Source: Mytilus trossulus | Lineage: Eukaryota | Reading direction: 5' to 3' | Length of the DNA: 64,000 nt | NCBI RefSeq assembly: GCF_036588685.1 | Contig: NC_086379.1 | Location: 58,032,001-58,096,000, forward strand | Shown here: positions 7,297-49,399 of the stretch, piece after piece | Layout: each line of letters starts with the position of its first letter | Position numbering within the stretch: position 1 is the stretch's first letter | Position numbers and translations under genes: made by a program | The notes under the pieces: generated by a model | Databases searched by the model: none | What the model was told of the DNA's origin: nothing | What the model saw: only the letters and a program-made list of their open reading frames with translations

Positions 7297-7386
7297 GCTG
7301 ACTTCAGGCAGGAACTTTTTAGAAATAAACAAAAGATGTTAGCAATATTCTTTAACTTTACTTTCTGCTATATAGATGATGTTCTC
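7297..7386 (+). mobile_element. Short Penelope-like RT fragment
   Basis: ADFRQELFRNKQKMLAIFFNFTFCYIDDVL, paralogous to 5860-5950. Confidence 0.65.
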
Positions 7387-7537
7387 GAACTAAACTGCAT
7401 CTTTACCCTGTAAGAACAGAACGAAGTGGAATAAACTAAAAATGTCTAATCTATCACTATCATCAAAAAGACATTGCATTATGTTGCGGTTTATCTGCCA
7501 TCATAACCGCAATGACTAAGACATAACATAAGAGTAT

Positions 7538-9830: not shown

Positions 9831-11126
9831 AATTTGTTTGTGTTAATCGTGATTAAGATAATAACACACTGTTGACTGCTGTACCCCTATTTGTGACATT
9901 TTCCATATTATGTCTTTGTTTTGATTACACATCATTGATAATTTACCTAGCTTTAAAACCAGGTTTTATCCAATATTTACTATTAAAAAATGTCTTACCA
10001 AATCAGGATTATGATAGTTGTTAAACATTTGTTTGATGTGTTTGGGTTTTTGATTTTGTCATCTGCTTTCCGTTCTGAATGTTTCTCGGAGTATTTTTGT
10101 GATTTAACTTTTGACTAGTGAGTTATTAAACACTCTTTAACAAGTGAAGCCTTTAATTTGTGACGCCTGCTTAGTTTTGCTCTTTTGATTCAAGTCACTG
10201 ATGAGTAATTTGAAGACTAGTAAACGCGCGTCTTTTCTAAACTATTTTAAACTTGGTTTATGTGGTGAGTTTATTTCTTACAGGGTTTGAAACAATTTGG
10301 ATGTGTTTCGCTTATATTAACGAACAAATATATTCTTTTACAGAATTTTTTAATTCATAAAATCGAAAAATAGATATCAAATTTACAATTTTACCAGGTT
10401 GGCGACTTGAGACAATGAAATATTTAGTTGTAATATCCCTTTAAGTGGAATCATTACTTCTACAAACTCTGAGATTGGAACAGTTTGTTATAGTTGTTTC
10501 CCTTTTGTAGACATTTTCGATATAAAAATAATATTATTACCTTCACCGAAATTTTAGACATTACTATGAACACGTTTACAACGAATCAATCGGAACACGA
10601 AGAAGCAACGATACATCGTCTACAAGTAAAGAAAGAATTGATAAGATGCTCCAGTATGATAAATGTACACTTACATGCATGAGGTTTTGATCCTAACACT
10701 CATTGCACAAAATAAAAATGAATAAACGACATCAACTCGGTGATTACTATTCTAAAGTAAAAATGAAGAGCTTTGGTGGTGAATAAGCGTCTTGTTTTCA
10801 TTAAGGAATGACTGTAATATTTTTTCTGTCTATAAAGAAATAACGTAAAATATGTGGTACATACTGAATAACACGCGCATCAATTATTTTATATACTTTT
10901 TTTTCCTTCTCAAACATCATCTGATTGGATTGCTAGACTCACCATTGCATGATTATTCAGCCTCGTTAATTCCAATTTAAACATGACAATACTTAAAATT
11001 AATCTCAATATATTTTCTTGACAATAATAAATAGTATGTTTTTAGTGTGGATACACAATGTATAACGTATAAGGTTATCTAAGCCTGAAGGTTATACATT
11101 AAAATTTCACTAATAATCGTTTAATA

Positions 11127-12626
11127 TCATTCTTTATAAAACTGATAAAACATTATAAAGCATTCAAAATGATAGAACATAACAAACGGAACCCAGAAAT
11201 GCTTAAATTTCAGCCAAGTATTACTGTTAAAAACTGGTTGAGTATTGTAAGCATGGTAAGGTACAGAAATAAATGTATACGAAAACCAAGTGTTGAAATT
11301 GACAAAACACATCACAAGAAAAATGTTTCTGATGGATAATACAGAATTAGAACTACTGAACTTCCGATATTGCTTCATCTGTAGGATAAAAGTGGTCTGT
11401 AAAATAGTGACAATAACTCTAACAACGGTATTCAGATGAATTCTGATGTCGTGAAACTGCGGCCGATTACGGCTGCTGAGACTTTCCAGAATGTAATAAC
11501 CACACGTAGCAAGAGATGTTGAAAGGATTATAAAATGTTGAATGTTGATTATTTTCCGTGGCCTTTCCTTTGGTTGTAGTTCTCCAGCTAATGCATGAAA
11601 ACACTTGATTGTTAGTGGTATCCGCAAAATGTTTCCGACAAGATAGTATGTATTCGGACCACCAGCTTGATTATACTGTGGAATGTACATTAAAACACAC
11701 TGAATTATGATGAAGGATAAACAAAACAATATACCAAGTCCGACTATGCACTTCGACTTCCTATTCATATGCCTGTTACGAACTGTTATATGTCCCGATA
11801 AAAGTTGGAAATGTTCTCCATTTTCCTGAGAAAATGAGGCAGAATCTAATAAATTAATTGTGTCAAGTGGCACTTTATGCTTTGGCCACATGTGAGAGAT
11901 GAATATCAAACTTAACAGACAATATTCTAGCAAAACTGGATCCAGGAATGGTTTAAGTATCTGTTCTGCTTTGTACAGAGTCGTTGCGTTGTTACATAGG
12001 TGTCCAGATTTATTTAGAATGTCATTTTTCTCCTCAAAGTACAAGTCTACATTTTTATGTGTCCACAAAGAGATATTTGCAACAAACAAAAACATCAGTA
12101 TATAATAGAAACATTTAATATTTGCAAATCGGAATCGTGAGAAATAAACAATGAATATGGTTTGTCCTAGATCGAAGAGCCAAGTTATTATATAGTAGAA
12201 TGCTTTCTGTGATAACGACTCACGTATATTACATTGAATATGAAGAGATAATTTCATTGCCTGTGATACGATATTTCCGAAACAAAAGAGCCACAGAAAC
12301 GCTAATTTCAGTTTGTGTGTAACTTGTCGTCTATGAAAAACCTTCCAATCGCTTTTTAAGTGAACTAGTAAGCTACAAGCGATCAAGAAACATATGGCAA
12401 GAGAGAGCACTCCAACAATTAACCATCTAGAATGTTTGGTTGGAAATATCAACATCACTTCAAGAACCGCTATAACTAGGGTCGTTAATAAGACAAGTCC
12501 GGATATACTTGCATCATGAACCGAGAATCCGCCATTTTCCCGCTTAGTCACTAGTCCTGCTGTAAAAGGCATTACCAATGCAGCATGTAAAATCCTTCGT
12601 AGCATATCTGGTGTCGTTTTATACAT
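11127..12626 (-). CDS. Otopetrin-like proton channel paralog 1 (499 aa, single coding exon)
   Basis: About 12 TM segments; motifs QTIFI, ANISLW, PFLDPVLLEYCL, QTTFILQ, VNFNTW, PFVMFYHFEC. Splice acceptor TTTTCTAG ends 4 nt before the ATG. Confidence 0.9.
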   Translation of the reverse strand: MYKTTPDMLRRILHAALVMPFTAGLVTKRENGGFSVHDASISGLVLLTTLVIAVLEVMLIFPTKHSRWLIVGVLSLAICFLIACSLLVHLKSDWKVFHRRQVTHKLKLAFLWLFCFGNIVSQAMKLSLHIQCNIRESLSQKAFYYIITWLFDLGQTIFIVYFSRFRFANIKCFYYILMFLFVANISLWTHKNVDLYFEEKNDILNKSGHLCNNATTLYKAEQILKPFLDPVLLEYCLLSLIFISHMWPKHKVPLDTINLLDSASFSQENGEHFQLLSGHITVRNRHMNRKSKCIVGLGILFCLSFIIIQCVLMYIPQYNQAGGPNTYYLVGNILRIPLTIKCFHALAGELQPKERPRKIINIQHFIILSTSLATCGYYILESLSSRNRPQFHDIRIHLNTVVRVIVTILQTTFILQMKQYRKFSSSNSVLSIRNIFLVMCFVNFNTWFSYTFISVPYHAYNTQPVFNSNTWLKFKHFWVPFVMFYHFECFIMFYQFYKE

Positions 12627-13585
12627 GTATCTAGAAAATCAATCATTCAATTCACTATAATTTGCTTCTCTAACTTCCGTAAACACATTTAATAAATTAT
12701 TTCGGTTTTTTTTCTTCAATTAAATTATTGTGAACTTTACATTGCATATTGTTGCACAGTAAATTAAACTTTCTCCCGCAGCATTTTTATTCTGATGCGA
12801 GTCTGTTAATCGAAACCGAGAATAACTATAGCCGCCAGAGAAAATTAGATGTGGATATGAAGAGGCATATAAGTACTTCCGTGGTTCGAATTATAGTATT
12901 TGAACAACAATTAAACCAATTATATTGAAAGAAGTTATTTATTTTCATTTCCTTATTTGAATGTTTCAAAAGCAAATTGTTTTATACTCACTTTCTGTAA
13001 AATGAAACTAGTTTTAATCTTGTATTTCGAATAAATCTCATAAACAACAAAGTTTAAAAGAATGGTTTCCTCGTCACGTTTTCATACAACCTACTTATAA
13101 TGCGAAGGGTATGAGTTCTCCGCTTATGTACAATATTCGAAAGTAATCTGCTATAGGATTTAAACTCACATGAGTCTTTACTAGATAATGTACAGCGAAA
13201 ACCAGCAATAACGTGAAGGATTAGCTTCAAAATGTATTCTTTAAATACCCTTTAAAACACGATTATTATCTGTTTTAAAAAAGATGCTTGATGAAAATTC
13301 ATTCAGGACTGATGGTCTTTTTAAATGTTTTTTTTTTTTTATAAGTAATGAAAATTCGTTATCTAAACTGATTTAGGAACGTATAGAAAATTTAGCGGAA
13401 AGTTCAAACTTAAAATATTTTAAAAACTTTACTATCATAATAGAAATAAGTAGCAGCACGCTAGCTTTTAAACGTGGTAGATAAGATAAAACACCTTCAA
13501 TATGTACACAACTCAATAACTTTGGAATTCTGATATTGTTCCTAGTTAATGACAAAATTGACTTTTATAGTGAAAGAGACAACAT

Positions 13586-18150: not shown

Positions 18151-18793
18151 TAACTGTTGTCTCCTGCTTAAAATCAAGAAGTAAAAACACTTTGTTGATA
18201 CTAAAATGACGAATTAAAAATATATGTACAGCATTCATATCCATAAAAACGGAATACATTAAAATCATAAATCTGTTCTTGCCGAGCAATGTATAGGCAA
18301 CACATCTAATATATTCCTTTCTTATGATTTCGTCTCTTCTAGATTTGGCTTAATTGTCGATAACGAAGGTCATCTTTTTTTTTTGTCTGGCAAACGTACT
18401 GGTTGGAGCATTTCTAGAGTTCGCATTTTCTCACAAGGAAGCTATTAAACCAAGAGTTCCAAATGGTGAAGTTGAAATCATTCCTTGGTTAATTTTATCG
18501 ACGCCATCACAAATTGGTTGACCGTTATAGAATGTGTACTTGTACTTTGTCTAAGAATGTATGACATTTGTCATCAGAGGGAGCGGAGCGTCAGACAATG
18601 TCAAACGTGAAGCAGTCATCGATTTCATTTAGGGAAAGGAATGGTAACCCGAAACATTGGGACAGCCATTTACCAATTGCAATGTCACTTGATTTGTCTT
18701 TATACTCTTTGCCTAGCCAATGTAAAACTATGAACTTACCTGTAACTTACCTGTAAATCCAATTAGGAAAAAATATAAAATCGGCGCATATGA

Positions 18794-20054: not shown

Positions 20055-20852
20055 ATGAAATCGGCGCAAATGAAAGAATGAAAATTTTCAAAATCGGCGC
20101 AAATGTCATACGCCCACATGTACAATCATTAGAGTTTATTTAGTGACAGATCCGTGCGTATTGCGATCACCGGATTTTTACCAGAGGGTCACAAAAAGGT
20201 CACTTTGAATACGAAAAATATATATAACAATTATAAAAAATGATAACTTCTTCAAATTGTAAACATATTTAAGGATTTTCTTCACAAAACAATATTTGTA
20301 CATAAGTTTAATAATGACAACTATCCATTTTGTTATAAAAAAAATATATGCATATTTTTTTTTAAATTGATGTTTCATATGACTTTATAATTACTAGTTT
20401 TAACATAATAGGATGTAAAACTAAATTGCCTTTTAAAGAAATAAAATATTATATATTTTTTTTTAATTTGCAATACATCAACAATGTCTCCTTTATTGAT
20501 AGAAGAGATTACATTTTGTTCATTTTGGCCTCTGTTCCAGGTGATCCAACCACTTTCAACATAGTTTTGACTTTAATATTTCCTTGCTTGTTAAGTTCCG
20601 CATATTGGCAGGTGATTTAAAAAAAAAGAAATGACTTGATTAAAAAGCTTCCGGTTGTATGATTATTTTTTTAATACAATACGTGTGTAAAATTCTTTTA
20701 GTTGTTAGATTATAATTTTAAAAATTAGTTTGAATTAACAAATGAGTTAAGAAAGTTTATTTTCCTGTGGTATGGATTATATTTTTCGGTACAGAACAAA
20801 AATAATAACTTGCTAGATTTCTTTTTACATTACCATCATTAGGAGGGAAAGT

Positions 20853-22493
20853 ATGGATTTCTTTAAAGAAGTATTTCGAGCTGCATTTGTTTTACCGTTT
20901 TCGGCCGGTAATGTAGACGAGGAGAATGGTTCACATGACGGCAGCCTGGCAGGACTTTTACTGATGACTACTTCAATAGCTATCCTCTCTGAGATACTGA
21001 TGATTGGGTTTTCAACTAACGAGACTATTTCGTCTAAATTCAGCGTTGGACTAGCAGTCTTAACGTTTCTATCTGCTCTAGCAATTGTAATTTGCGTGTG
21101 TATCAGTTTATACGTGTCATCAAGAGGGAACCGTGTGTTTCGTATTTTACCATGGAATACATGTAATACAATAAGACTAAGGTTTTTGTGGATTTTTTGT
21201 TTCAGCTGTATTATTTCGAGAACATTGGACATGACCTTTTATATTGATTGTCTAACTAACTCATTGACATTGAAATTTACAGTAGACACTATAGTATATG
21301 CTCTGGTCTGTATAGTATTCTACGTTGTACAAACTGCATTTATAACATATTTTTCGCATTCTCGATTCACCAGCCACCTTGGTGTTTATTATGGATTACT
21401 TATTATATTCCTAACAAATATTTCAGTTATATGTCATGCCTTGGCTTTTACTTTTAAACCTAAGGAGATTGACATGGTTGACATTTTTAATTTGACGACA
21501 AATACCCAACATACTTCGAGTAATACATCTTGCTACAAGTCAAGTATGTACGCGGTATTGATGAAGATTGATCCTTTCTTGTTACCGGCATTTTGTGAAT
21601 ATTCGCTTGTTTCCATAACGTTTATTATGAATATGTGGCCAAAATTTGGATTAAAAAATGACGAATTTGTGCTTGATGATATTTCACTTGACGTAAACAG
21701 AGAAACGTCAGAGTCGACGAGCAATTTAAGAGGATCGATAAATGGTAGGTCAGATTCGACAAATAACAGGCGGAATAATGAAAACATTCCTTTATTAGAC
21801 AACCCTAAAAGCACAACAAACTACAGACAACACCGTATAAGAAGATTTATAAGCATATCTGTTCCTATTCTTCTTAATTTGCCATCAGTTATATTATACT
21901 GTTTACACATTTCAAAAGTTCCATCTGTACAATTAGGCTTAACAATATCAATTGCTGTAGGAGCTACTATTGAGCTGCTTTTGTACGTGAAATGCTTTTA
22001 CTCTCTTCAGACGCAATGTAAACCATTGAAACAAAAGGAATGTTCATCTCTTGATTCTGGTGATTACATTCTAATTGCAAGTGCGGTTGCAGCAATATCA
22101 TATTACACGGTAAAACTGATGTCAAATATTTACAATGTTAGCTCTGAAGCTACATATCCTATAGGTTTTTATAAACTTGTTATTGATATCATCGCAGCTT
22201 ATTTTCAAACGGTTTTCATTTTACAAATGAAAAAATATGCGAAGGCCTTTAATATTTCCTCATGGACGTCGGTTGAATATACATGTTTATTAATGTCTTT
22301 TATGAATTTATGTTCATGGGCGGCTGATACTCTAATAGTTTCACAATATGTTTACCAAAATGACGCACCATATCATTTCTTTGGGTCATCTGACTGGACA
22401 GAAATCTTTGGATTTTTATACCCATTTGTAATCTTTTACAGATTCAATGCTTTTGTTTCCTTTTATGGTTTGTATGATAGATTGAAACATTAA
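20853..22493 (+). CDS. Otopetrin-like proton channel paralog 2 (546 aa, single coding exon; most divergent and closest to canonical motifs)
   Basis: HDGSLAG, LRFLWIF, VQTAFI, TNIS, PFLLPAFCEYSL, FQTVFILQ, MNLCSW, FFGSSDW, YPFVIFYRFNA. Acceptor CATTAG ends at 20842. Confidence 0.92.
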   Translation: MDFFKEVFRAAFVLPFSAGNVDEENGSHDGSLAGLLLMTTSIAILSEILMIGFSTNETISSKFSVGLAVLTFLSALAIVICVCISLYVSSRGNRVFRILPWNTCNTIRLRFLWIFCFSCIISRTLDMTFYIDCLTNSLTLKFTVDTIVYALVCIVFYVVQTAFITYFSHSRFTSHLGVYYGLLIIFLTNISVICHALAFTFKPKEIDMVDIFNLTTNTQHTSSNTSCYKSSMYAVLMKIDPFLLPAFCEYSLVSITFIMNMWPKFGLKNDEFVLDDISLDVNRETSESTSNLRGSINGRSDSTNNRRNNENIPLLDNPKSTTNYRQHRIRRFISISVPILLNLPSVILYCLHISKVPSVQLGLTISIAVGATIELLLYVKCFYSLQTQCKPLKQKECSSLDSGDYILIASAVAAISYYTVKLMSNIYNVSSEATYPIGFYKLVIDIIAAYFQTVFILQMKKYAKAFNISSWTSVEYTCLLMSFMNLCSWAADTLIVSQYVYQNDAPYHFFGSSDWTEIFGFLYPFVIFYRFNAFVSFYGLYDRLKH

Positions 22494-24227: not shown

Positions 24228-24500
24228 TGTCAGGAATCTGATGTACAGTAGTTGTCGTTCGTTTATGTAATATATACGTGTTTCTCGTTTCTCGTTTTGT
24301 TTATATAGATTAGACCGTTGGTTTTCCCGTTTGAATGGTTTTACACTAGTAATTTTGGGGCCCTTTATAGCTTGTTGTTCGGTGTGAGCCAAGGCTCTGT
24401 GTAGAAGGCCGTACTTTAACCTATAATGGTTTACTTTTTAAATTGTTATTTGGATGGAGAGTTGTCTCATTGGCACTCACACCACATCTTCCTATATCTA
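24228..24500 (+). repeat. Interspersed repeat, uninterrupted form of the host of the 32027 retrozyme insertion
   Basis: CTTTATAGCTTGTTGTTCGGTGTGAGCCAAGGCTCTGTGTAGAAGGCCGTAC...CACCACATCTTCCTATATCTA. Confidence 0.8.
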
Positions 24501-27500
24501 TAGCCAAATATAATGTCTATTCTAATCAAATGCAGCAAGTTTGCTACGTTTAACTTTGAATTGTCATTAAAGTAATTAAGACGAACAATCATGATTAAAG
24601 AACCGTAGTGATCGTCTTTTATTGTATTATTGTATTTTGGTTCAAATTTTAGTTAGTGACAACTGCATATTAAGGTTTTGTTATGAAACAAAAACTTGTG
24701 TTAAATTGTTCAAAATGTATGAATTAGGCAACATATGTAAAAAGATTGATATATAGTCTTTGTATGAATAATTTGTGGGATAAACAGTGGTTGTTGAATG
24801 TAGACAGCTCTAGTTACCTTTGATAAGACAGTGTTTGTTTGATCAAGCTAACTAATATTTTTAGCTTCTTCAGCAAAGTGTAGATTATATAGGTATGCGG
24901 TAACAAATGTAGTTTTGCCATTTTATTTACAGAAATAAATTCCTGTACTTTTTCGTAAATGTATAACAATGATTCGTTTGTCTTCCCATAACATTTTTAT
25001 TGAAACTGGGCGTTATGTTGGTACTTATAGAAAGGTAAGAAAAAAATTGTGATTAAGGAGTAATAGAGGATGAATTTTATTTCATCCTACAATGTAGCAG
25101 ATATACTGATTTGCGAAAATAATATATAAAAAATATTACTGGTCTAGGCCATCAATTTTTAAGTTAATAGAATCATTATCTGATGAAAACACAAAACAGT
25201 TTTGTGACATAGGAATGTATATACATTTCTCTTCTAAATAAAAAAAAAACAGTTATAAAAGATATTGTGTATTGATGAAACTTCTGACGTCACTTATTGT
25301 TAATTATAGATCATTATACATATTGTTAACATTGTTTGTAATATGCCATATGTATACACTGTACAGGTACTCAATTACTGACGAGCCGTCAAGTTAACAA
25401 AGAATTTGAATTTATTGTAACTTTAAAAGAAGAATTTAAATTTTAGAAAATGTTCTTCAACTAATTAAGTATTTGATTTGGTCTGTTGATTATTTTGATT
25501 CGAACGCCGTTGGTGAGACGAAACGAGCGTCTGCAGTAGCACATAAGTAGCCCGGTATATTTTATATTAGAGTTTTTACACCCTTTTTGTTAAACTTTAA
25601 TACACGATTTTCAATAATATTATTTATATGTTAATGAAACGAAAAATCTTTTTGATGAAATATTTACAGAAATCATACCAATTTCACAGGTTAACCAAAA
25701 AGGTAATGTACTGTCGCCACAAACTTTTAAAAATAAAGTATCAAAACTATCAATATTTATCTTAAGAGTGTATCCAAAAAGGTAAATCATCAGTTTTACG
25801 AATGTGTCTGGTTGTTATCAATTTTTCAAAATAGTGTACAAAACCTAAAACGTAAGTAAATTAAGTAATTCAGTAAATAGTGAGTTAAAGCATAAAACTG
25901 TAAGCAAACGATCAGTGCAAAATATGCTGTAACGGAAACTATTTAAAGTACTTCATTTGTATTTAAACTCGTATTCAAAAGGTCATGGTAACACATTTAA
26001 TTCAATCGAATGAATTTCAATTACAAGGAAGTATTTCAAATAAACCCATAAATTTAACTCCAATATACGCAATAAGGTAAGAAAATTTAAGGCATAGATA
26101 TTAAAGTGCTTATTTTTCATATTATTCCAATTGTTTTATCATTATTATGAAACTGACTTTCAATTTGGCAATACTAATGCCGCCATATGAAAAGAGATTC
26201 AGATTCATTTAAAATTTCATAGTACATGACACCTTTTGAGAATGCATATAAATGATACCATAAGTATATCATGTATAAAATGCATAACATAAATAACATG
26301 ATTTTTTTTAGTGCGCACGGCATATTTGCTTTGGAAAAACTTTCATCTAGCACATATGATTGGATAACCAAAATATTATCATTTTAGGGCATTATAACCG
26401 AAAGGTCAACTTTAACAAGTAAACGTTTCGCTTCAGAGAGTTGTAACATAAGTTCCAACACAATTTGAAATAAAAGCCGATTATTTTTCTCTTTTGACAA
26501 AGTAATTACTTGGTCTATTATGTATTATTATAACGAAATACGAAACAAGAATATAGAGAATATAGGGGGAGCTTAGCTATGGCTCAACTTGTTCATTTTT
26601 ACATTCCATGGCTAAAGCTGTATCCCATTTTCTGAATACCTGTACCATGTCAGGAAAATAGAAGTTGTTTGTTATTGTTCCGTTAGTTGCTTCCTTTTTA
26701 ATTTACCTTCGAGTTCTGTATTGTTTGTTATATTTTTTTTTCTAAAAACCTATGCTCCTCTCAATTATTTAGGAACATGAACAAAGATTAGCTGAGAGAA
26801 AAATATCTTTGTTATATTTTTGTTGTCTTAGGTATTTGTTAATAACCCTTCACATTGTGTTTGTCGTCTCTTAAGAATTTATAAAAATTTGATTTCAAGT
26901 CAGAATCATTAATCAACATTACAATAAATAAGGAAACTCGTATAGTGTTTTTCACATGTTACATAAAAATGAAGTTAATATTCTTTAATCTATTTTATGC
27001 TCATTTTAAAGCATGGAGAGGTAAATTACTAAATCAAATGAAATAACGTAGTCGTTTGTACGAAAAGATAAAAGATAAATTCACACACATTTCAAATAAA
27101 AGGAAAGTGTCAAATAAAAATATTAAAATTCAGAATAAAAATGGAGAATGTGTCAAATAGACAACAAACCGACCAAATAGTAAACAGCAGCCGAAATCCT
27201 CAACACAGCGAGGAAATCCTGCACCCGAATAGGGGCTTCAGCTGACCCCTAAATAAAAGGTGATCTAGTTCAGTGAACATGGACGTCATAGTTGACTAAA
27301 AAAAACTATCTTGAAAAATTACTATAAAACCGAACTTATCATCATGAGGTTTATGTTACTATCTCTGTCGGAGACGGACCCAGGGAAACAGGTGACCTAG
27401 ACTACCTTTTACGAAACTGGACATAAGAATAATTCATTGAATTATACATGTTTCACTCCTTATCTTGTTTAGTATGCCTTCCCTCTTTTTCTAATTCTTG

Positions 27501-28714
27501 GATCTACATCTGACTGCTAAAATTTTGTTTTTGCCAGTTCACCGTGGTAAATCAAATATTGGACACAACATGACACTATTCCAAGAATAAACGAGCCACC
27601 ATACTATTTGATAAATCGGTATCGTGATCAATATCTTATATTAATTCAAACTGTCATTCCAATTTATTTATTCTATAAAAAAAATGGTATAAATAGTTCT
27701 TGGATATCCTTACTTTTAAATTTTTAATTAGAAATTTAGAAACAAAATTTACCGTTTAAGTCATATCAATACCGACGAATGAATGATTTGCGGAAGGTTA
27801 ACTTATCCAACATGCAGGTGTCTATCCAACATGCCAAGCTCCATGTCGTAGCGGGGCATTAACATTGGAAATTAATTCAACGTTCATTTCTCCAAATAAC
27901 AAAACGTATTTTAAAAGAAGAGCAAAATATACCAGGGAGACAGTCAAATCATAGATCGAAAATAAACTTACATAGCAATAGCTGAAAAAGAAAACGACAA
28001 ACAGACACATTATAGTACACAATACAAAACATAGAAAACTAAAGACTAAGCAATACGAACCCCACCAAAACTTGAGGCGATACAAGATATGACGTATACA
28101 ACTGCTTAGAACACGCATATACAAATTTATATGTTAAATTTGTCGTATTCAGATGATGAAAAAAGTTATACTTTATTATTACTAATGGTTAAAACGAACC
28201 GAGAAAAAAATGATAGAAACTTTACAAAGGTAACAGTAGTATTACGCTGTTCAAAGTCAGAAATCAATTGAGAGAAAAAAAATTCGGGTTACAAACTATA
28301 AAATCGAGGGAAACATTACAACTGTGAGGAAAAAACAACGAAACAACAGAACACTGAATGCAAAAAAAAACAAAACAACAACCGACAAAACATTAATTGT
28401 TATACTGTATTTAATTGAAGTAGTTGTTGCATGTCATATTCTAATTCTTTTCGTTATGTTGAGAATTTGATGTCATGCATATTCAAGGAGAAAAACAAGT
28501 AATAAGAAATTTAAAACATGAGTCACTCTACTATAGTTCTCGGCTTACCTGTTTTCTCATTGTTTAGGCGGAATGTATATTTAAAAATTGTGAGCTTGAT
28601 GTTTGCTGACTTGTAATTGTAAAAACATAATACATATGTGGGAAGATTATTCAATTAATAAAAATTCAGGGGTAGCTTTACTTCAAGTCATTTTATTTTA
28701 TTTGCAGCTAAATA

Positions 28715-30214
28715 ATGACGAATCTACTGTGTAATATATTGCGTGCTACTTTTATTGTTCCTTTTTCTGCTGGTCTTATTAAGGAGCGAAGAAATGGAGG
28801 TTTTTCAGTACATGATGGCAGTATTGCAGGCGTAGTTCTTTTGACCACAGCCATGATTATTATCTTTGAAATTATAGTTGTACTACCAGTGAAACAGTCT
28901 CGATTGCTGATGGTAGGGCTTGCAGGTCTGGCGTTAATCTGTCTGGCATTGTGTAGTATTGTCGCTCGATGCCGTTCTAACTGGCTGGAAGTAAAGACTG
29001 TGAAACCGAGCGATCAATTGAAACTAAAATTTCTATGGCTATTTTGTATCGGAAATATAACGTACCAAGCATTACAACTAGCAATGCATCTCGTTTGTAA
29101 GATCTACAACCTTCAAGTCACATTGTTTTGGACATTTACCTGGACATTTCAGATATGTCAAACTGCGTTCATTCACTATTTTTCTAGATTTAGATTTGCA
29201 AATGCTCTGTGTTTGTATTACGGGTTGTTGGTTCTCTGTGTGACAAATATTTCAATGTGGACACAGCAAACGTTCTATACGAACAGAATTAGACACGAGA
29301 TAAATATTAGCAACATTATTAATAATACAACCTCGAACTGTTTTTATGCTGATGGACTTGCAACAGCAATTGCATACTTGAATCCATACCTACAACCTGT
29401 ACTTCTAGAATATTCTCTTTTAAGTCTGATATTTCTTTCTGAAATGTGGCCAAAAAAGAAGGTCGAATTTGAGACATCCAACAATTTTCTTTCAAGAGAC
29501 ATAGACGATGAAAACCAGACATTACTAGTACAAAATGATGATCTAGATAGTGAACAACATCCACTTCTGCCGCGCAGTAATGTCTGGAATAAAAATTCAG
29601 TATGCGTCCTGGTGATAGGATTTCTTTATAACTTCTTATTTATGATCATTCAATGTATATACATATATAGACCTAGGGAAACAATGACAGATTACAGGAC
29701 GGTTTCCTATATTATCTTCTTTTGTGCTAATTTAGTACGAACGCCGCTTATAATCAAGTGCTTCTATGCATTAAACGGACAATTAAGACCAAAACAGGAA
29801 AGTAATAGTGGGATGAGTTTAGATCAGTTTGTTATAATAACAAGTTCGTTTGCGACTTGTGGATACTATATTTCAGATTGGTTCAGTGAGTCACCATCAA
29901 ATACAGATTCAGGAGACATTCTGTTTAAAGTTAATGCCTTCTTTCGTATTATTGCTACGCTTTTTCAAACATTATTCATTTTGCAAATGAAACATTACAA
30001 AAAGATAGGAGACCAAAAGCCTTTTTGTTCTATACAAAATACTTTTTTGTTTGTATCATTGGTTAATCTTGGAATATGGATGTCATACACTTTTGTAAAT
30101 CCCAGATATCGTCTGACACCATCTAGTTTTTTACTAGAAAGTTTTTGGTTTCCATTTGTTTTATTCTATCACTTCGAATGTTTTGTCGCATTTTACAAAT
30201 TTTTTCGAGCATGA
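28715..30214 (+). CDS. Otopetrin-like proton channel paralog 3 (499 aa, single coding exon)
   Basis: HDGSIAG, CQTAFI, TNISMW, PYLQPVLLEYSL, FQTLFILQ, VNLGIW, PFVLFYHFEC. Acceptor TTTGCAG ends at 28707. Confidence 0.92.
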   Translation: MTNLLCNILRATFIVPFSAGLIKERRNGGFSVHDGSIAGVVLLTTAMIIIFEIIVVLPVKQSRLLMVGLAGLALICLALCSIVARCRSNWLEVKTVKPSDQLKLKFLWLFCIGNITYQALQLAMHLVCKIYNLQVTLFWTFTWTFQICQTAFIHYFSRFRFANALCLYYGLLVLCVTNISMWTQQTFYTNRIRHEINISNIINNTTSNCFYADGLATAIAYLNPYLQPVLLEYSLLSLIFLSEMWPKKKVEFETSNNFLSRDIDDENQTLLVQNDDLDSEQHPLLPRSNVWNKNSVCVLVIGFLYNFLFMIIQCIYIYRPRETMTDYRTVSYIIFFCANLVRTPLIIKCFYALNGQLRPKQESNSGMSLDQFVIITSSFATCGYYISDWFSESPSNTDSGDILFKVNAFFRIIATLFQTLFILQMKHYKKIGDQKPFCSIQNTFLFVSLVNLGIWMSYTFVNPRYRLTPSSFLLESFWFPFVLFYHFECFVAFYKFFRA

Positions 30215-32026
30215 TTTTATTATGTATTCGACATAGGACAAAACCAAATATCTGCAAGTGACTGTATATCCTCCTTTGGTTCTAATCGAATGTAATAACC
30301 CTAAGTATTATTTTTTCATCATTTTTTCTACACTAAATTATTTTAATTTATTTTTTAATTTATTTTTATAAAAACATTTATAACTTTTCCCTTGGTTAAG
30401 TCCAGTAAGATTGCCATTTGACCCAGGACAAATTGCAACAGAAAAAACAAATTTTCACCTTCCATCACAGTACAAAGAAATTCTGCTTTTCATTATATAT
30501 TTTTTTACGAAAGTTTACTATCAATATATTTTAAACAGAAAACTCATTTGTTTTGATGAGAAAGGAATAGTCAGTATACAAATTTCAACTTGTGTCAATG
30601 GATTGTTTTGTCAATGAAAATATGGATTGTTTCATGTTTCGATAATTCTGAATAGGACAAGTATTAGCTTTCAAAAATGTTTGTCTGATTTGAGTATCTA
30701 TTAGATGTGAACAGAAGTATATTCTGAGATACGAGACAAGTATTTGTATAGATTTAGGACTTCATTTAATGCAGATTAATAAAGTGTAGGAAAATTATAA
30801 ATACGATGTTTTATCATTGGTAATATACTGTTTCAACAGATGCATGTGAATGTATTTGATTTTCTGGGATTTAAGCTTATTATTTATTATTCTTATACAG
30901 TGGGAAATGTAGTGAATAAACGGAATAACGTTCAAATAAAAAGTTAAACTTGAAATAATTTAAAATAAAAATAAAACTTCAACTCAATTTTATTATTTTC
31001 CTTCTGATGTAATAATTAAACGACGAGTACATCAATCTTTAGAGTGGAGTAAACATATTTCTATGAGAATAAATTCCTAGAGTACCAACTTCAATTTTAT
31101 TTTCACTATCTGTATACCTTTCTGGAGCAGGCTTAATTTTCGTATATATATATACAGATGGATCAGAAAAAATCATGTTATGCAGCAAAAATTGTCACTT
31201 TTGAAATGTACAATTATTATTTAAAAATAACTTTTGACCTATATCGTCACCGGTCTTGTTTTTGTTGTTGACTTTTTCGGCTCTATCATAAGAAAAGTGA
31301 ATTTGCTTTTGTTTTTGTTTACTGGATATCCCACTGTATAGATGACTTTTTCTAATCTATTAGACTTTGTCAGAGTAACTTTAATTTTAAAAGTTAACAA
31401 CATTTACCTCTATGCACAATTAGTTTGATAAGATTGATGAAAACAATTAGCCATCTTGTATTATTTCTATTTTGTATTTAATAAAATCAAGTAAATACAT
31501 AACTATTGCACGTGTTTGATTTGAGTTTTGTTTTAATCGGTTAATGGTATCTTTACCTAACTCTCCTTTCAAATAATTGTCCTCAAAATCAAAACATAAA
31601 AACAAACAAAACAAAACAAATATCACTAAAAACCTTTTAAATTGTAAGGATACATGTGTTATAATGTACAAAGGTGTAACGTTTTTTTATAGTTTAGTTA
31701 ATCAATATCCCAATACCCTATGCTGTAAATATATAAAACTGGTCGTCTTTATTTTAGATTGTTTACTATAACCGAATGTTTTCACATGACAAGGGATACA
31801 AACATAGCAAGATAAGCTTAAGCTGTCGACTCAACCTGTTTCGCTACTTTAAGGAATTATGCGATTCCCACAATTTTGGTCTGTACTTTTATCCAGTTTA
31901 TCAAATTAAGACATCGGATTTACTACTTTTGCCTATATTTAAGAATTGTTACCCTTGTTTATAGCAATAAACAGATTCAAAGATATAGCATGTCCTTTAT
32001 AGCTTGTTGTTCGGTGTAAGCCAGGG

Positions 32027-32419
32027 ATAGTTATCAAAGGTACCATGATTATAATTTAGTACGCCAGACGCGCGTTTCGTCTACATAAGACTCATCAGTG
32101 ACGCTCATATCAAAATATTTATAAAGCCAAACACGTACAAAGTTGAAGAGCATTGAGGATCCAAAATTACAAAAAGGTGTGCCAAATACGGCTAAGGTAA
32201 TCTATGCCTGGGATAAAAAAATCCTTAGTTTTTCGAAAAAATCAAAGTTTTGTCATAGGAAATTTATCAAAATGACCACATTATTGATATGCATGTCAAC
32301 ACCGACGTGTTGACTACTGGGCTGGTGATATCCTCGGGGACGAAACGTCCACCAGCAGTGGCATCGACCCAGTGGTGTTAATAGTTATCAAAGGTACCAG
32401 GATTATAATTTAGTACGCC
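32027..32419 (-). mobile_element. Full retrozyme monomer (354 nt) plus ~40 nt, inserted into an interspersed repeat
   Basis: ATAGTTATCAAAGGTACC at 32027 and 32381; intact hammerhead inside; the host repeat resumes at CCGTGTTGAAGGCC. Confidence 0.9.
32061..32104 (-). ncRNA. Type I hammerhead ribozyme with minimal palindromic stem III
   Basis: GCGTCA-CTGATGA-GTCT(TATGT)AGAC-GAAA-CGCGCG-TC^TGGCGT. Stem I GCGTCA/TGGCGT, 4-bp stem II, GUC cleavage triplet. Confidence 0.9.
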
Positions 32420-33179
32420 GTGTTGAAGGCCGTACATTGACCTATAATGGTTTACTTTTATAAATTGTTATTTGGATGGAGAGTTGTCTCATTGGCATTC
32501 ACACCACATCTTCCTATATCTATTATAAATTACTATTGAAGTTACGGTTAAACTCTATCAATTTAAAGCAATTTTTTGAAATTTCTTACTTGGGACAGTC
32601 ATGATCATTTATATGAATACATTACCTGAGCTGTATTTAGCAAAACGTTTAGAAATTTTGGTCCTTGATGCTCTTTAATTTTTACTTTTTTTGGCCTATT
32701 TATGTTTGTGTTATTCGAGCGTCATTGGTGGGACGAAGCGCGAGTCTGGCGTGATTACAGAAGTTGGTCCTGGTATCTGTTTTGAGTTTATTTAACCATA
32801 CAGTGGGGTAAAATTATTTTTTAGGATTAGATCAGAATCTTTACTCTTCCATAGGTGATTAATAAAGGAATCATGAGAGCAAAATAATATATATATATAG
32901 GCCAATGTGCTTGTTTTCGAGATATTAGCCATTGAAATTGTGGCGAAAAATGTCCTCTCTTGACTTTAATCATACATAGCTATATCATTGAAAAGTTTAA
33001 GTTTTATCCTTGTATCTGTGATGAGTTTTTTTATCATGTTTATGGCATCCAAAATATTCACATGTACGAACAAAATAATAAAATATATGTGTGTGACAGT
33101 CGTGTGGCAGACAATGTGTGGGTCTGTTGTGCTGTTTTCTGTGCTGTCATTGGTTGTTTTACGTGTTAGTTTTTATTAT

Positions 33180-33450
33180 GAAGTTAGTCCGCACTTTGGT
33201 GTTGACATGAATATGAATTATATGGTAATTTTTATAAATTTACTGTTTGCCAAAGTGAGAATTTTAAAATACTTAAGAATTTCTAATCCCAGGCATACAC
33301 AACCTTAACCGTTTAAGGCACACCTGTTTTGAAATTTGGGATAATCAATGCTCTTCAAATTTCTTACGATTTTTATCTGAGCCTCACTGATGAGTCTTTT
33401 GTAGATCGCGTCTGGTGTTTTAAATTATAAGACTTGTACATTTGATAAGC
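33180..33450 (+). mobile_element. Degenerate retrozyme copy in the opposite orientation
   Basis: GGTGTTGACATGAATATGAATTATATGGT...GAGCCTCACTGATGAGTCTTTTGTAGA..CGCGTCTGGTGT; the GAAA is lost. Confidence 0.7.
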
Positions 33451-39377: not shown

Positions 39378-40380
39378 ATTATTTAAAAGGTCAGGCAAAA
39401 TTATTCTGCATTTTTTTGCAAAAATACTTAACTCCACGGACAATTCAAAAAGAATAATCCATATGTATTACTGTCAGTAGAATATCAAGGTATATATCAT
39501 ATACTACAAATATTTGGCAACGACTTTGTTTGTTTCAACTTGTAGGACTAGATGTTTTCCAGTGATATCGATCGATGTATCTGTTGTAGCCTTTTTGGTA
39601 CTCTTTTGTAATTAAACATCTTTTATTATAATGTTTTGCATTAAAGACCTCGCTAATCAAAATTAATTTAATTTATATCCAGAAGTTATATGTTATGGCT
39701 TGGTTTCTCTTTAAATATATACTTAAAATATCATACACCATTTAGATAAATGATCAAATAAGGTTTTTAAAATGTGGCTTTCATTTAATCTGGGGGCGAT
39801 TATAACTTCGTTATATGTTGTACCATAATATTGTAAGTACACATGGCTGTTAAACCTCAGTAGAGAATTGACATGCCGTTTCAAAATGGCATTTTTAATA
39901 TATTACAGTTTGCTGGATATTGTTAAAACTGTCAAAAAAGAAAAAGTTCTATTTTGTCTTCGTCTTACAAAAGAAGGACAAAAGATACAAGAGGAACAGT
40001 CAAACGCACATTGAAAACTAAATTAAAAACTGCATAGCTAAAAAAATAAAAATAAAACAGACAGACAAAAAATAGTTCACAAGACACAACATAGAAAATT
40101 AAGGGCTAAGCAACACGAACCCCACCAAAAATGTGGGTGATCTCAGGTTCTCCGGAAGGGTAAACAAATCCTTCTCCACATGAAGCACCCGTCGTGTTGC
40201 TCGAGTTATTACAAATCCGGAAAGTTACCCCAATGAGCAGGCTGCAAACACATTTAACGGTTGATTGTTAGTTGTATGTCAAATAATGAATTCTTATCCA
40301 ATAAGGAAAAAAAAGAAATTAACAAATGATTCAAAGGTAGTTCTACTTTTAGCCACATATCTTATTTTACAGCAAGTGAA

Positions 40381-41877
40381 ATGAATCAGCTATGCAATAT
40401 TTTGCGTGCTACAATCATCGTTCCGTTTTCTGCTGGTTTGATAAAGGAACGACGGAATGGAGGATTTTCGATACATGACGGCAGTATTGCAGGGATAGTT
40501 TTACTGACCACAGCTATGATCATCATATTTGAAACAATAGTTGTACTACCAGTGCATCAGTCTAGATTGTTGATGATAGGACTTGCAGGTCTGGCGTTGA
40601 TCTGTCTAGTGATGTGCAGTGTTGCAGCTCGGTGCCGTTCTAATTGGGTCGAAATAAAAACTGTAAAACCTAGCGATCAAATGAAACTGAAGTTTCTGTG
40701 GTTGTTTTGTATCGGGAATATTATATATCAAGCAATGCAACTAGCTATGCATCTCGTTTGCAAGATATACGACTTCCAAGTCACACTATTTTGGGCGTTC
40801 ACCTGGGCATTTCAGTTATTCCAAACCGTTTTCATTCACTATTTTTCTAGATATGAATTTGCCAATGTTTTGTGTTTGTATTACGGTTTATTGGTGTTAT
40901 TTGTGACAAATATTTCAATGTGGTCACAACAAACTTTCTATACATACAGAATTAGTCATGATATAAATATTAGCTATCTCATCAATAGCACGGTCTCAAA
41001 CTGTTTATACGATGATGGACTTTCTGAGGCAGTAGTATATTTGACTCCGTATCTGCAACCAGTATTACTAGAATACTCTCTTCTAAGTTTGATATTTCTT
41101 TCCGAAATGTGGCCAAAAAAGAAGGTTGAACTTGAAAAACTCAACATTTATCTTGCAAGAGATGCAGATGATGAAAATCACACATTATTGGTACAAAATG
41201 AAGACCTTGACAGTGAACAACATCCACTTCTGCCGCGCTGTAGTGTCTGGCATAAAAATTCAGTACGTGTCCTGGTAATAGGTTTATTGCATAACTTTTC
41301 ATTTCTGCTATTACAATGTATTTACATTTATGGACCGCGGGAAAAAATGACAGATTACAGGACATATTCTAACATTCTCTTCTTTTGTGCTAACTTTGTT
41401 CGAACGCCACTTATAATCAAGTGTTTCTATGCATTGAACGGACAAATATGGCCAAAACAGGAAACTAATAGTGGGATGAGCCTAGATCAGTTTGTTATAA
41501 TAACAAGTTCTTTTGCAACTTGTGGATATTATATTTCAGATTGTTACAGTGTTGTATATCCAAATTCAAAACCATTAGAAGTCCTGTTTCGAATCAATGC
41601 TGTCCTCCGTATTTTTGCAACACTATTTCAAACTTTATTCATTTTGCAAATGAAACACTACAAAAAGATAGGAAACCAAAAGCCTTTTTGTTCAGTTCAA
41701 AATACTTTTTTGTTTGTGTCCTTGGTAAATCTTGGAATATGGATGTCCTACACGTTTGTTAATCCCAGATACCGTTTGATACAATCTAGTTTTGTATTGG
41801 AAAGTTTTTGGTTTCCATTTGTAATTTTCTATCATTTTGAATGTTTCGTCGCATTTTACAAGTTTTTTCGAGCGTAA
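40381..41877 (+). CDS. Otopetrin-like proton channel paralog 4 (498 aa), recent duplicate of paralog 3
   Basis: Colinear with 28715-30214, roughly four of five residues identical by eye. Acceptor TTTTACAG ends at 40372. Confidence 0.92.
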   Translation: MNQLCNILRATIIVPFSAGLIKERRNGGFSIHDGSIAGIVLLTTAMIIIFETIVVLPVHQSRLLMIGLAGLALICLVMCSVAARCRSNWVEIKTVKPSDQMKLKFLWLFCIGNIIYQAMQLAMHLVCKIYDFQVTLFWAFTWAFQLFQTVFIHYFSRYEFANVLCLYYGLLVLFVTNISMWSQQTFYTYRISHDINISYLINSTVSNCLYDDGLSEAVVYLTPYLQPVLLEYSLLSLIFLSEMWPKKKVELEKLNIYLARDADDENHTLLVQNEDLDSEQHPLLPRCSVWHKNSVRVLVIGLLHNFSFLLLQCIYIYGPREKMTDYRTYSNILFFCANFVRTPLIIKCFYALNGQIWPKQETNSGMSLDQFVIITSSFATCGYYISDCYSVVYPNSKPLEVLFRINAVLRIFATLFQTLFILQMKHYKKIGNQKPFCSVQNTFLFVSLVNLGIWMSYTFVNPRYRLIQSSFVLESFWFPFVIFYHFECFVAFYKFFRA

Positions 41878-45139: not shown

Positions 45140-45560
45140 AGTACAGAAGACACAACATAGAAAACTAAAGATTAAGCAACACGAATCCTACCAAAAATGG
45201 GGGTGATTCCGGTTGCTCCGGAAGAGTAAGCAGATACTGCTCCACATGTACCACCCGTCGTGTTGTTCATTTTATTACAAATCCGATAAATAGTATATTT
45301 CGGAAGGTCACATAAAAAGTAAAAAGGGAACATAAGGAAAATATCAGATATCATCTGTGAAATGGTTATTCCATAACGGTCAACCAACTCTTGATGTCGT
45401 TACGAAGAGATTATTTAAACGTCACCATTTGGAACTCTTGGTTTAATAGCTTTCTTGTGAGCAACAATCCTTTATCAAGGAAATCATGATAGGAAACACA
45501 AGCCCCGGAATATCAATTGGGAGATATATACTCCGTATGCAGGCGCTGCTGGAATGTTAG
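45140..45560 (-). mobile_element. Degenerate Penelope-like 3' end/tail
   Basis: Similar to 5150-5530 and 6050-6230 (AACATTCCAGCAGCGCCTGCATACGGAGTATATATCTCCCAATTGATA = NIPAAPAYGVYISQLI). Confidence 0.65.
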
Positions 45561-47050
45561 TTTAAACATATTTTATTGTCCAAAAACATTGACAATAGGA
45601 TTAGACACAAGTTTTGCAACTCAGAACGTCTTCTCCATTACATACAAATAATAAATAACCGAACAAAAATGAAATACATAATAATAACATCTTAAACAAT
45701 ATTAATATGAAGACATGAAACTAACGAGAATTTAAACGACATGACTCATCTATTTCTAAAAGTCGAGTTGACCGTAAATTTGTATGATAGACCTACCTGG
45801 TAGGTTGTATTAATCTTGGAATAAATATTCCCTCAAAAGGTAAGTGTTTACTGTATTTTAAACAAATAAGTTAAATTGTTGTTGTCAACTGATGAATTAT
45901 ATACTAAAATCAAATTGATGATCCATGTCTTAGGAAAAAATGAACAATTTCATTCGAAGTCAACAAAAAGTAATAACATTGTTATTGGTATATATTTAAC
46001 CATAATGTCTATAAACTATGAAAAGCTATTGGTCTCTTTAATATAATTCTGCACTTTTATAAAAATTAGCCTGTTTATGTTAAAAGTAAACAAAGCATTG
46101 CCGTACATTAAATTTTCAAAGTCGATAGGTATATTTTCTTTTCTAAGTTCAAAAAATAAGGTATTCCTTTGCACTGTATAATTTTTACACGAGAGGAAAT
46201 AATGTTGGGCATTTTCGTATAAATAACCACATTGACACATTGCGTTAGTTTTAATATTAGCGTGATACAGATCCATGTTCAGGGCACTGCATTTGTTCCT
46301 TAATCTTGCGTGTAAAACATTTAAATATCTATCGCCAATATTGAAATATGTAGGGGGTGATTTGTTTTTATAATATTTCTGTTTAATTTTCAATTTAAAC
46401 ATATTTAAAGAAAGTTCATTTCTAACACTTAAATCAAGCGAATTCCACAGTTTGATACTAGATGGAATAAATGATTCCTGATAAAGAGACAGTCTGCTAG
46501 AGGTTTGGTATATATTTTGACTGCTTCGTAGATTGTAATTGTTTGTTTCTGCAACTGTAGGGGGTATTAAATCTAATAAATATTCTGGGGCATCCTCTTT
46601 CATAATTTTGTAAAATAAAGTTAATTTCTTAACTTCCCGTCTAATCCTTAATGTTTCCCATCCCGTCTCTAAATAAAGTGATTGAGTGCTAGCATAGCCT
46701 GTTAGACCAGTGACAATACGTGCTGCTTCCAGTTGTAATTTTTCTAATCTTTCAGAATTCAACTGTCCGCAATTATCCCAAACTTCAGAAGAATATTCTA
46801 GAACAGGCCTTATAAAAGTTAAATATATTTTTTCTAAATATTCCCTTTTTAGTCGGAATTTCAAACGTCGAAGAACATTTAATTGTTTTGATACCTTTTC
46901 TATTAAAGAATCGACATGCTTGGCCCACTTACAATCACTGCTAAAAAATATGCCTAAATGTTTATGACTAGTAACTGTATCTACCTGAACTCCGCCAAAA
47001 TTAAAAATCAAGTTATTTTTTAGGAATGTTGATATGGAAAGTAACATTTA
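45561..47050 (-). mobile_element. 5'-truncated CR1/L2-group LINE (RT C-terminus plus 3' UTR)
   Basis: ORF 46016-47047: HKHLGIFFSSDCKWAKHV, YLTFIRPVLEYSSEVWDNC, LEKLQLEAARIVTG, C-terminal CQCG...HYFLSC. 3' end AATAAAATATGTTTAAAC at ~45561-45578. Confidence 0.88.
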
Positions 47051-47931
47051 TTCTCAATATTCAATATTCACCATTTCAGAAACTTAAACCTTCCGGATAT
47101 AAAAGCATACACCAAAAGAATCCGATTGGTGAGCAAAAAAAGATATAAAAAAATAAAATAACAAAAATACAAAACTCCGAGGAAAATTCAAAAACGGAGA
47201 GTTCATAATCAAATGGCAAAATCAAAAGCTTAAACACAGCAAACGAATGGATATCAACTGTCATATTCCTGGATTGATACAGGCTGTTTGTATATAGAAA
47301 ATAGGGGATTAAACCCGGTTTTATAGCTAGCTAAATCTCTGACTTGTATAGCAGTCACATAACGTTCCTTTATATTGACAACGATGTGTGAACAAAACAA
47401 ACACGGGACATAATTCCAATCACGTCACGTTCCTCATTTTGGTTTATAAAACAATACATGTTAAAACTATTAAAATTCATTTTGTATCTAAATCAGTTAA
47501 TTTTAACTATACGTTGTCTAACACATTAGTTTAATTTGAAATTATTTCGAATTATTTCACAACCTGTCAATGCCATGGCCATAATAAGATAATAGATACA
47601 TTGATGTTGTGAAACGCATATTTTGATTATTTTACTCAAAACGATGCATATATGTTAATGAAAGAAAAGAGCAGGAAGTTTTTCTTGTAAGAATATTGCA
47701 TTTTGATTAGTGTTATCAGGTAAGAATGGTTGGTATTCTTGATAAATACCAAATGACTGATATCCGCTCATTTGAACATATCTGATTACTGTCCTATAAT
47801 TTTTTTAAACTACTGTGACTATCTATTTCAGGGGGAAATGATTTGAAATATTGACACCGTTCAATGGTCATCTCGAAACTAAATAATCGTTTAATAAGAT
47901 AAACTTCCATATTACGACGACAGCATCAAAC

Positions 47932-49399
47932 ATGAGACAAAAATTGAAGAAAATCCTGCATGCTGCATTTATAATGCCATGGACAACTGGTTTAATTAAA
48001 GAATATCGTAACGGTGGTTTTTCAAAACATGACGGCAGCATTGCTGGAGTAGTTATTTTGACAACAATAATCATCATGATATTCGAACTTATGGTTTTCT
48101 TCCCTAAAACGACTTCTCGAATAGTCATGACTGTTTTGTTGATCATCGCAATATTCACATTGATATCCATGAGCCTTTCAGCTTGTAAGAATACACACTG
48201 GACAGTACCAAGAATGTCAAAAGGCAGTCACAGTTTGAAATTGAAATTCCTTTGGCTATTTTGTGTAGCCAATATTACCTTTGAAGTAGTGAAATTTGCA
48301 ATTTATAGCAAATGTGACCAACTTCCAGATGTTCTACTGTTTTATATTTCAACTTGGATATTTCAAATTTTGCAAACATTCTTCCTTCATTACTTTTCCA
48401 AATTCACATTCAATAATATACTGTGCCTCTATTATGGATTTCTTGTTCTGGTTGTTACAAATTTTTCACTGTGGACACATCGAACTATGTTTACATATTA
48501 TGAAGCCAAATCATTTTTAAACATCAGTGACATCAGTGGAAATGTATGTAATGATACAAAATCTTTTGTTCCGATGGAGAAGTTTAAACCATTTTTAGAT
48601 CCAGTGTCTTTAGAGTATTGTCTTTTGTGTGTAATACTTCTATCTGAGATGTGGCCGAGAGCAAAGTATCCCGAACATCAAAGTCGACAACTACAAGAGT
48701 CCTCTTCAAAGGAAGAAACAGAAGAACATCAGTGGTTATTGCGTTGCAATAGCAATGTTCCGACTAGAACAGTTTGGAATAGAAAATCAATTATAGTTTT
48801 GTTTATTGGTGTCTTGTATATGATTGTATTTCTTGTTATACAGACATTATTTCTTAACATTGATCAACTGAGAAAAAATTACTTGCACGTAGCGTTCGTA
48901 TTTTATGTTTGTGGAAATTTCATTCGGATACCGCTTACCATAAAGTGTTTTTACGCATTTTCTGCACAACTCCGTCCTAAATCAAATGTTCAAACGGTCA
49001 CGGATATGAAACATGTAATTATCGTAGTTAGTTCAATGGCTACATGTGGATATATTATAGCAGAATGTGTAGAGAATCTACGCCACGGTGAAGTGAAAAT
49101 CATACTTAATGCCATTTTCCGTTATGCAAACGTCCTTTATTTTGCAAATGAAACAGTACAAACGAGTAGACAGAACAAACACTATAACGTCTATACAAAA
49201 TACATTTTTATTCATGTGCTGCATAAACTTCAGTTTTTGGTTTTCATACACCTTTATATCACCGCAGTATACTGTCAGATTGCATAGACACTTCTTTGGA
49301 ATTACCAGCTGGCTAAAAATTAAACATTTCTGGTTCCCTTTTATTATATTTTACCACTTCGAGTGTTTTATCTCATTTTATGACTTCTTTAGGACATGA
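47932..49399 (+). pseudogene. Otopetrin-like paralog 5, frameshifted (about 14-nt deletion near 49123-49126)
   Basis: Frame 1 matches paralogs up to NAIFR; a second frame continues QTSFILQMKQY...PFIIFYHFEC to TGA at 49399. Paralogs have 6 codons between R and QT; this copy has only TATG. Putative 5'UTR intron 47720-47831. Confidence 0.85.

Follow-up and report, generated by a model that had tools for sequence, protein, structure and literature searches.

The copies of the hammerhead-bearing retrozyme family analysed here share a common 3' end, 40 or 41 nt past the predicted self-cleavage site (+40/+41), and this is our strongest result. Their 5' ends are scattered, and a fixed 3' end combined with scattered 5' ends gives the family the polarity of target-primed reverse transcription. 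In one copy, a 393-nt insertion into a host repeat of the window (the whole 64-kb stretch of DNA that was analysed), the 5' end also lies at the predicted cut, raising the question of which form of RNA served as its template.

The insertion and its host repeat

The focal insertion is on the minus strand. Its reverse complement opens with GGCGTACT, which recurs at offset 354, and the whole corresponds to unit positions +2..+354 followed by +1..+40, with +1 denoting the base directly 3' of the predicted cut. A terminal direct repeat of 39 nt (32027-32065 and 32381-32419, spacing 354) is 97% identical, with one mismatch; apart from this repeat, no LTRs were found in the insert, which has a GC content of 38.7% and a longest ATG open reading frame of 34 aa. 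The insertion and its surroundings comprise the following features.

32027-32419, minus strand: retrozyme insertion, 393 nt, delimited by period, direct repeat and ORF scan
32061-32104, minus strand: type I hammerhead, predicted cut 32067/32066, from the RF00163 match and a base-pair check
32027-32066, minus strand: 3' extension, 40 nt past the cut, its end being the family's common 3' end and putative priming site (copy alignment, contig flanks)
32381-32419, minus strand: 5' 39 nt (+2..+40), repeating the 3' extension and beginning 1-3 nt inside the predicted cleavage-product end
32313-32375, minus strand: GC-rich stem-loop region, unit +46..+108, directly downstream of the common 3' end in the unit
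31994-32026, plus strand: left part of the host repeat, 33 bp, its 3' end being the putative DNA primer (repeat alignment)
32420-32523, plus strand: right part of the host repeat, to a fixed end at 32523 (repeat alignment, contig flanks)
32418-32419, no strand assigned: CC common to element and host consensus, microhomology at the 5' junction (host copies, contigs)

The hammerhead is the only complete one in the focal copy, so that release of a monomer by two cuts is impossible from this copy. It is a full-length match to Hammerhead_1 (RF00163; 33.0 bits, E 2.2e-6) in an Rfam E-value search of 31950-32550, 1 bit below the gathering score of 34, and Rfam at the gathering threshold returned no match across the whole 64-kb window. 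The motif is of type I, with an intact CUGAUGA/GAA core, a GCGC loop and stems I, II and III of 6, 4 and 2 bp, in which 12 of 12 pairs are standard or G-U. In ViennaRNA predictions stem I had a probability of 0.00 in all five contexts tried, and the hammerhead fold of the 44-mer lay 3.5 kcal/mol above the minimum; self-cleavage of the focal copy is therefore a prediction. The insert as a whole did not fold better than shuffled sequences (z -0.8). It differs from the majority letter of the run contigs at no fewer than 11 of 353 positions (~3%, counted among the rows listed), and is thus not brand new. These observations bear out the reading of an earlier note on this DNA, which had recognised a retrozyme insertion of one 354-nt unit, running through an intact hammerhead and stopping about 40 nt beyond it.

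Within the stem-loop region, a 9-mer at unit +74..+82 (32339-32347) is the exact complement of GACGAAACG in the hammerhead core (32073-32081), a match better than in most shuffles (32 of 2000). We considered whether this 9-mer could block the downstream hammerhead and so give a half-cut template, and discarded the idea because the pairing probability was just 0.00-0.23 in the four contexts containing the 9-mer. The plus strand of 32313-32375 folds better than shuffles (z -2.0), and around 32339-32347 it resembles a minimal hammerhead's 3' half. A second ribozyme on this opposite strand was rejected, as the region lacks a CUGANGA box and Rfam matched no ribozyme there; judged by its sequence, it is possibly the remnant of an inverted hammerhead.

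The insert splits a host repeat whose left and right parts match 24362-24501 at 94% and 95%, respectively. Other copies of this repeat lie near 4346, 13779, 16310, 24230, 42523, 45073 and 52488; its right end is fixed at 32523, where 169-274 contigs per run have unlike flanks, and its last ~50 bp are tandemly duplicated in contigs. No exact target-site duplication accompanies the insert (0-1 nt), and no homology was found between primer end and template at the 3' junction, where the putative nick site, between GGG and CTCC, is GC-rich. At the insertion site the host copies at ~16.4 kb and ~52.6 kb read CTCC, and in each of four public runs 197-369 contigs read from AAGGCT into 32418, whereas the copy at 24361-24420 reads CTCT. 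CC is compatible with host and element alike, so that the insert may begin anywhere from +2, with 4 host nt lost, to +4, with 2 host nt lost, that is, 1-3 nt from the predicted cut; by chance, two nt would match at such a junction with a probability of ~0.19. The earlier note had put the start 1 nt from the cut and the host loss at about 2 nt, and had read the microhomology against the copy at 24361-24420. A start near the cut, the missing duplication and the CC all stand, the last by way of the other host copies and the contigs, whereas the exact distance widens to 1-3 nt and the host loss to 2-4 nt.

Some alleles appear to lack the whole arrangement. A contig of run X14 (depth 130.1) spans 31800-31992 and, by variants of equal depth, 32526-32600, and a contig of run X2 (depth 7.6) seems to span likewise, up to 32562. 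Based on the equal depths, this suggests that alleles without both host repeat and insert exist, with 31993-32525 replaced by ~7 letters in X14 and X2; no joint directly bridging the absent block is among those listed in the contigs. A contig of run X8 leads from 31800 into the host repeat up to 32020, with one mismatch and one gap, and no run contig showed an allele that has the host repeat but not the insert.

Ends of the family copies

Seven further pieces of the family, belonging to two related subfamilies, are present in the window.

1-517, minus strand: copy A, more than one unit, 5' end +52, internal deletions, cut junction 341/340 intact, clipped by the window edge
5696-5835, minus strand: copy B, second subfamily, 5' end at unit 255, 3' end at the common point
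10151-10257, plus strand: copy C, decayed, 5'-truncated (~273), ending near the common 3' point
32608-32785, plus strand: copy D, second subfamily, decayed, 5'-truncated (204-216), ending near the common 3' point
33185-33448, plus strand: copy E, older, 5' end ~105, 3' end ~+36..+41
59888-60084, minus strand: copy F, second subfamily, 5' end ~211, ending near the common 3' point
63169-63255, minus strand: fragment G, weak, unit ~29-117, no hammerhead, ends uncertain

Pattern scans for further copies gave four loci in metagenomes, three in genomes and none in viral contigs; L006 and L007, which are 21-nt matches only, were dropped as family copies. L005 (CALHGI010000550.1, 182-275), an 88%-identical retrozyme piece in a bacterial metagenome-assembled genome, is probably animal DNA in a bacterial bin. 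The stretch, or part of it, is present in 20 of 24 listed runs, including 'mollusc metagenome' runs and six RNA runs; the latter contain 31-36% of its words, all as contigs, which cannot show circles. The 354-nt period, the more-than-unit copy A and back-joints in contigs (32411 to 32060) are evidence of tandem arrangement. Copy A (at 371) and L004 (at 1201) both have junctions at the second base of the CUGAUGA box (unit position 324), a position for which L004 is biased, having been retrieved with a pattern that starts there.

In all nine hammerhead-bearing copies with a readable downstream end, the 3' end lies 36-44 nt past the cut: at about +36..+44, aligned on the cut, in the focal copy, L001, L002, L005 and copy E, and at the equivalent TTTATTT in copies B, C, D and F, which carry second-subfamily sequence. 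Not counted are A, clipped by the window edge, L003 and L004, which run into contig ends, G, which has no hammerhead, and the two 21-nt matches; the ends of decayed copies are uncertain by several bases, and that of B is pinned by the reverse transcriptase frame around it. Among the run contigs, 208 of X4, 273 of X8 and 239 of X14 pass into long unlike flanks (agreement 0.38-0.39) at 32380 (+41), and 274 of X8 do so at 32027 (+40); X2 has no pile at +41 among its 6 listed rows. A second pile at +7 (148-249 contigs in X2, X4 and X14; agreement 0.53-0.56), mostly of second-subfamily sequence, may mark another end site 34 nt upstream of +41. Since the unit continues past +41, the start of reverse transcription would be internal to the RNA.

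The 5' ends behave quite differently. Eleven are readable, at +2..+4 (focal), +52 (A), 255 (B), ~273 (C), 204-216 (D), 105 (E), 211 (F), 29 (G), 231 (L003), 324 (L004) and 304 (L005), with L001 and L002 left out as clipped by contig ends. They fall at 10-11 different places, one of them at the cut. If 5' ends were distributed uniformly, an end would fall at the cut with a chance of 0.008-0.025 per copy and of 0.09-0.25 for at least one of eleven, figures to be read with the caveat that the window was selected for the cut-site coincidence. No 5'-side pile at 32416-32420 or 32063-32067 is found among the 24 of 3018 loose-end rows listed; these include some with only 21 contigs and so are not ranked by count, and the absence sets no firm bound. 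The contig start/end table likewise shows no pile of contig starts or ends. The cut junction itself carries no indel in copies A, B, D, E, F, L001, L002, L004 and L005, which argues that templates are normally continuous at the downstream hammerhead.

The distribution of end points, which the earlier note had proposed as a check, thus gives a pile at the 3' end in the contigs and none at the cut among the rows listed. The insertion does look like a retrotransposition product with its 5' end at the predicted cut, as the note had it. Its further claim, of a direct genomic record of reverse transcription of a ribozyme-processed RNA, went too far: the insert crosses an intact cut site, and the cut-site match of the 5' end rests on one copy, a single insertion that does not settle the form of the template. 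As a reading, the claim is plausible.

The window also holds remains of reverse transcriptases and several longer reading frames. Copy B sits inside a Naiad-type Penelope reverse transcriptase relic (5281-5979, minus strand), just after the YIDD motif; it has no target-site duplication, its 3' end shows an overlap of a few bases, and the idea that B is fused to the 3' end of a Penelope-like element (PLE) was rejected, as the reverse transcriptase frame continues on both sides of B. A further relic lies at 6043-6538, with smaller pieces at 7288-7395, 18400-18528 and 45331-45561. A 343-aa frame at 46016-47047 (minus strand), for which no Pfam match was found, resembles the C-terminal part of a LINE-type ORF2. 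Five uninterrupted ORFs of ~470-560 aa, at 11127-12638 (minus strand), 20817-22493, 28712-30214, 40330-41877 and 47887-49287 (all plus strand), look related by eye and may form a tandem expansion of otopetrin-like genes; Pfam Otopetrin matches two of the five (E 1e-22 and 5e-8) and does not match the other three. The relics were assigned to the Naiad type by the N-terminal GIY-YIG, CxC and DKA motifs of their relatives (features from PMC8557442). Canonical hammerheads are absent from Naiads, and no sequence match was found between the window's Naiad-type relics and the retrozyme unit, so that no partner element was recognised among the relics. The 64-kb window as a whole yielded no autonomous partner with sequence in common with the unit.

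Priming and the form of the template

How could an insert arise that begins at one cut site and ends 40 nt past another? We propose that, at a DNA break, the host 3'-OH at 32026 would prime reverse transcription by a Penelope-like enzyme, which would act in trans and start 40 nt past an uncut hammerhead; taken jointly, these two steps are in our judgement quite likely. The template would be a half-processed linear RNA transcribed from a tandem array, with its 5' hammerhead cut and its 3' hammerhead uncut, and the enzyme would run off the cut 5' end, a step to which we give an even chance or slightly better. Finally, the end of the cDNA would be joined via the CC, whereby the element would lose 1-3 nt and the host 2-4 nt. 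By analogy with PAc, which needs about 55 nt of RNA beyond its start site (PMC11167929), the reverse transcriptase may bind the stem-loop at +46..+108.

Both ends of the insert are accounted for by a linear RNA that was cut at the upstream hammerhead and left intact at the downstream one. Because the insert crosses an intact cut site and continues for 40 nt, a fully cut linear monomer is excluded as template unless the enzyme jumped, and a ligated circle, being continuous, offers no reason for a stop at the cut. Mussel retrozymes cleave slowly, with a kobs of about 0.1 per min (PMC7229834), so that half-cut RNAs are to be expected. Against the half-cut reading stand the single 5' end at the cut among eleven, the lack of a cut-site pile among the loose-end rows listed, the unfavourable folding of the hammerhead, the minority share of linear RNA in mussels and the PAc results on the hammerhead cut given below, and against a Penelope-type choice of target stands the GC-rich nick site, as PAc prefers ATT targets and initiates about 85-92 nt past the cut (PMC11167929). 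On balance, such a half-cut linear RNA is our best reading of the template, with about an even chance of being right.

Its most serious competitor is internal priming at +40 on a circle or an uncut multimer, the 5' end then being an ordinary truncation whose position near the cut is due to chance or to a pause. The enzyme might have paused on entering stem I of the hammerhead, the 3' strand of which is formed by +1..+6, or on displacing its own cDNA after one turn of a circle. Most retrozyme RNA in mussels is circular, and circles figure as templates in the published model (PMC7229834); ten of the eleven 5' ends are scattered, more-than-unit copies exist, as copy A and the back-joints from 32411 to 32060 show, and the chance of such a coincidence is ~0.1 per window. 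For any single copy, however, this chance is only 0.008-0.025, the enzyme would already have passed an identical hammerhead 354 nt earlier, and the folding predictions give no stable stem I. We regard this account as a tentative one that deserves to be kept in mind. Far less probable is a fully cut linear monomer with its ends paired by stem I, on which the enzyme would start at +40, copy to +1, jump to the template's own 3' end and stop again at +1. The predicted maximum of 354 + 40 = 394 nt agrees well with the 391-393 nt of the insert, and linear monomers do occur in mussels (PMC7229834). Nevertheless, the junction is exact here and free of indels in nine other copies, and strand displacement would be required over the last 40 nt. 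Template jumps by non-LTR enzymes usually add or lose bases.

Two further explanations, both of which strike us as very unlikely, would detach the 5' end from the ribozyme altogether. The 5' end could be a transcription start set by an internal promoter: unit +51..+61 resembles, with one mismatch, the tRNA B-box consensus. The sole A-box-like word, however, begins at +1, so that transcription would start upstream of the cut, and no tRNA-like Rfam match was found in 31950-32550 up to E 10. Alternatively, the insert could have been copied at the DNA level from another genomic copy during break repair, in which case its ends would carry no information on RNA. The absence of a target-site duplication, the small host deletion, the microhomology and the GC-rich site all fit break repair, but the 3' end falls within 1 nt of the family's common end and no donor flank was carried along. 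How sharply 5' ends peak at the cut, which can be counted in an assembled genome, would tell a linear from a circular template.

Relation to known systems

In Mytilus galloprovincialis, about 5000 type I hammerheads in two families of ~350-390-bp repeats have been described, with self-cleavage of a mussel repeat and expression mostly as circles, linear RNA being a minority of <5% to 25% (PMC7229834). Matched to the published families by description, the focal element fits the mollusc non-LTR retrozymes. Like those of M. galloprovincialis (Cervera and de la Pena 2020), it has a type I hammerhead and a low-GC, non-coding unit, whose 354 nt are within the retrozyme range of 150-450 bp (350-390 in mussels). 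As in those mussel families, there are tandem and dispersed copies and, in the window, two related subfamilies, and the element is found in 'mollusc metagenome' runs. Four motifs of the unit were not found in the literature texts. PMC7229834 proposes circles as templates. The focal copy differs in having one hammerhead only, and its single complete hammerhead also sets it apart from an 'active retrozyme' in the sense of Li et al. (2026).

Both PMC7229834 and bioRxiv 10.64898/2026.07.22.740005 leave open whether animal retrozymes are mobilised as circular or as linear RNA and by which enzyme, and PMC8557442 calls the role of hammerheads in PLEs unclear. A link to PLEs has already been put forward as a candidate in print (PMC7229834, PMC7761336, PMC4209133), and Li, Clavereau and Pollet (bioRxiv 10.64898/2026.07.22.740005) base it on co-occurrence and pLTR homology in 35 genomes, none of them from a mollusc. 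Mapping of retrozyme insertion ends was not found in a search of mostly open literature, nor in the main texts of PMC7229834, PMC7761336 and bioRxiv 10.64898/2026.07.22.740005. The type of element and, from R2, ribozyme-set 5' ends are already known, and our addition is the common 3' end 40-41 nt past the hammerhead. With a fixed end at +40/+41, retrozymes bear a mechanistic signature like that of Penelope elements, and the end names the site on the RNA for work with the enzyme.

The closest biochemical parallel comes from a purified Penelope-like protein, which starts reverse transcription inside the RNA, downstream of an uncut hammerhead and on nicked DNA that is non-homologous to it (PMC11167929). 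In that study no PAc RNA read had either end at the hammerhead cut, and insertion did not depend on cleavage. The focal family resembles the PAc and Poseidon PLEs (PMC11167929, PMC8557442) in its fixed 3' end past an uncut hammerhead, in primer and template without homology and in its 5' truncation, and as in PLEs the partial tandem in the focal insert yields a short pseudo-LTR. The tail of PLEs, of 30-40 bp, spans two initiation sites and not the cut according to the same sources, so that the 39-40 nt of the focal insert are a resemblance in length only. Unlike an autonomous PLE, with its ORF for a reverse transcriptase and a GIY-YIG endonuclease, the focal insert is without an ORF.

A precedent for a ribozyme-set 5' end is provided by R2 elements with a 5' HDV-like ribozyme, in which self-cleavage sets the 5' end and variable junctions are attributed to chance microhomology (PMC3774820). 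The focal 5' junction, with its 1-3 nt loss and short microhomology, is of the same kind. In contrast to the focal element, however, R2 is autonomous and site-specific, and its ribozyme is HDV-like and stays on the RNA, whereas the core of the focal hammerhead would be left on the upstream fragment. The focal family finally agrees with the proposal in bioRxiv 10.64898/2026.07.22.740005 that PLE machinery mobilises retrozymes and that dispersed monomers, such as the insertion described here, are offspring unable to transpose.
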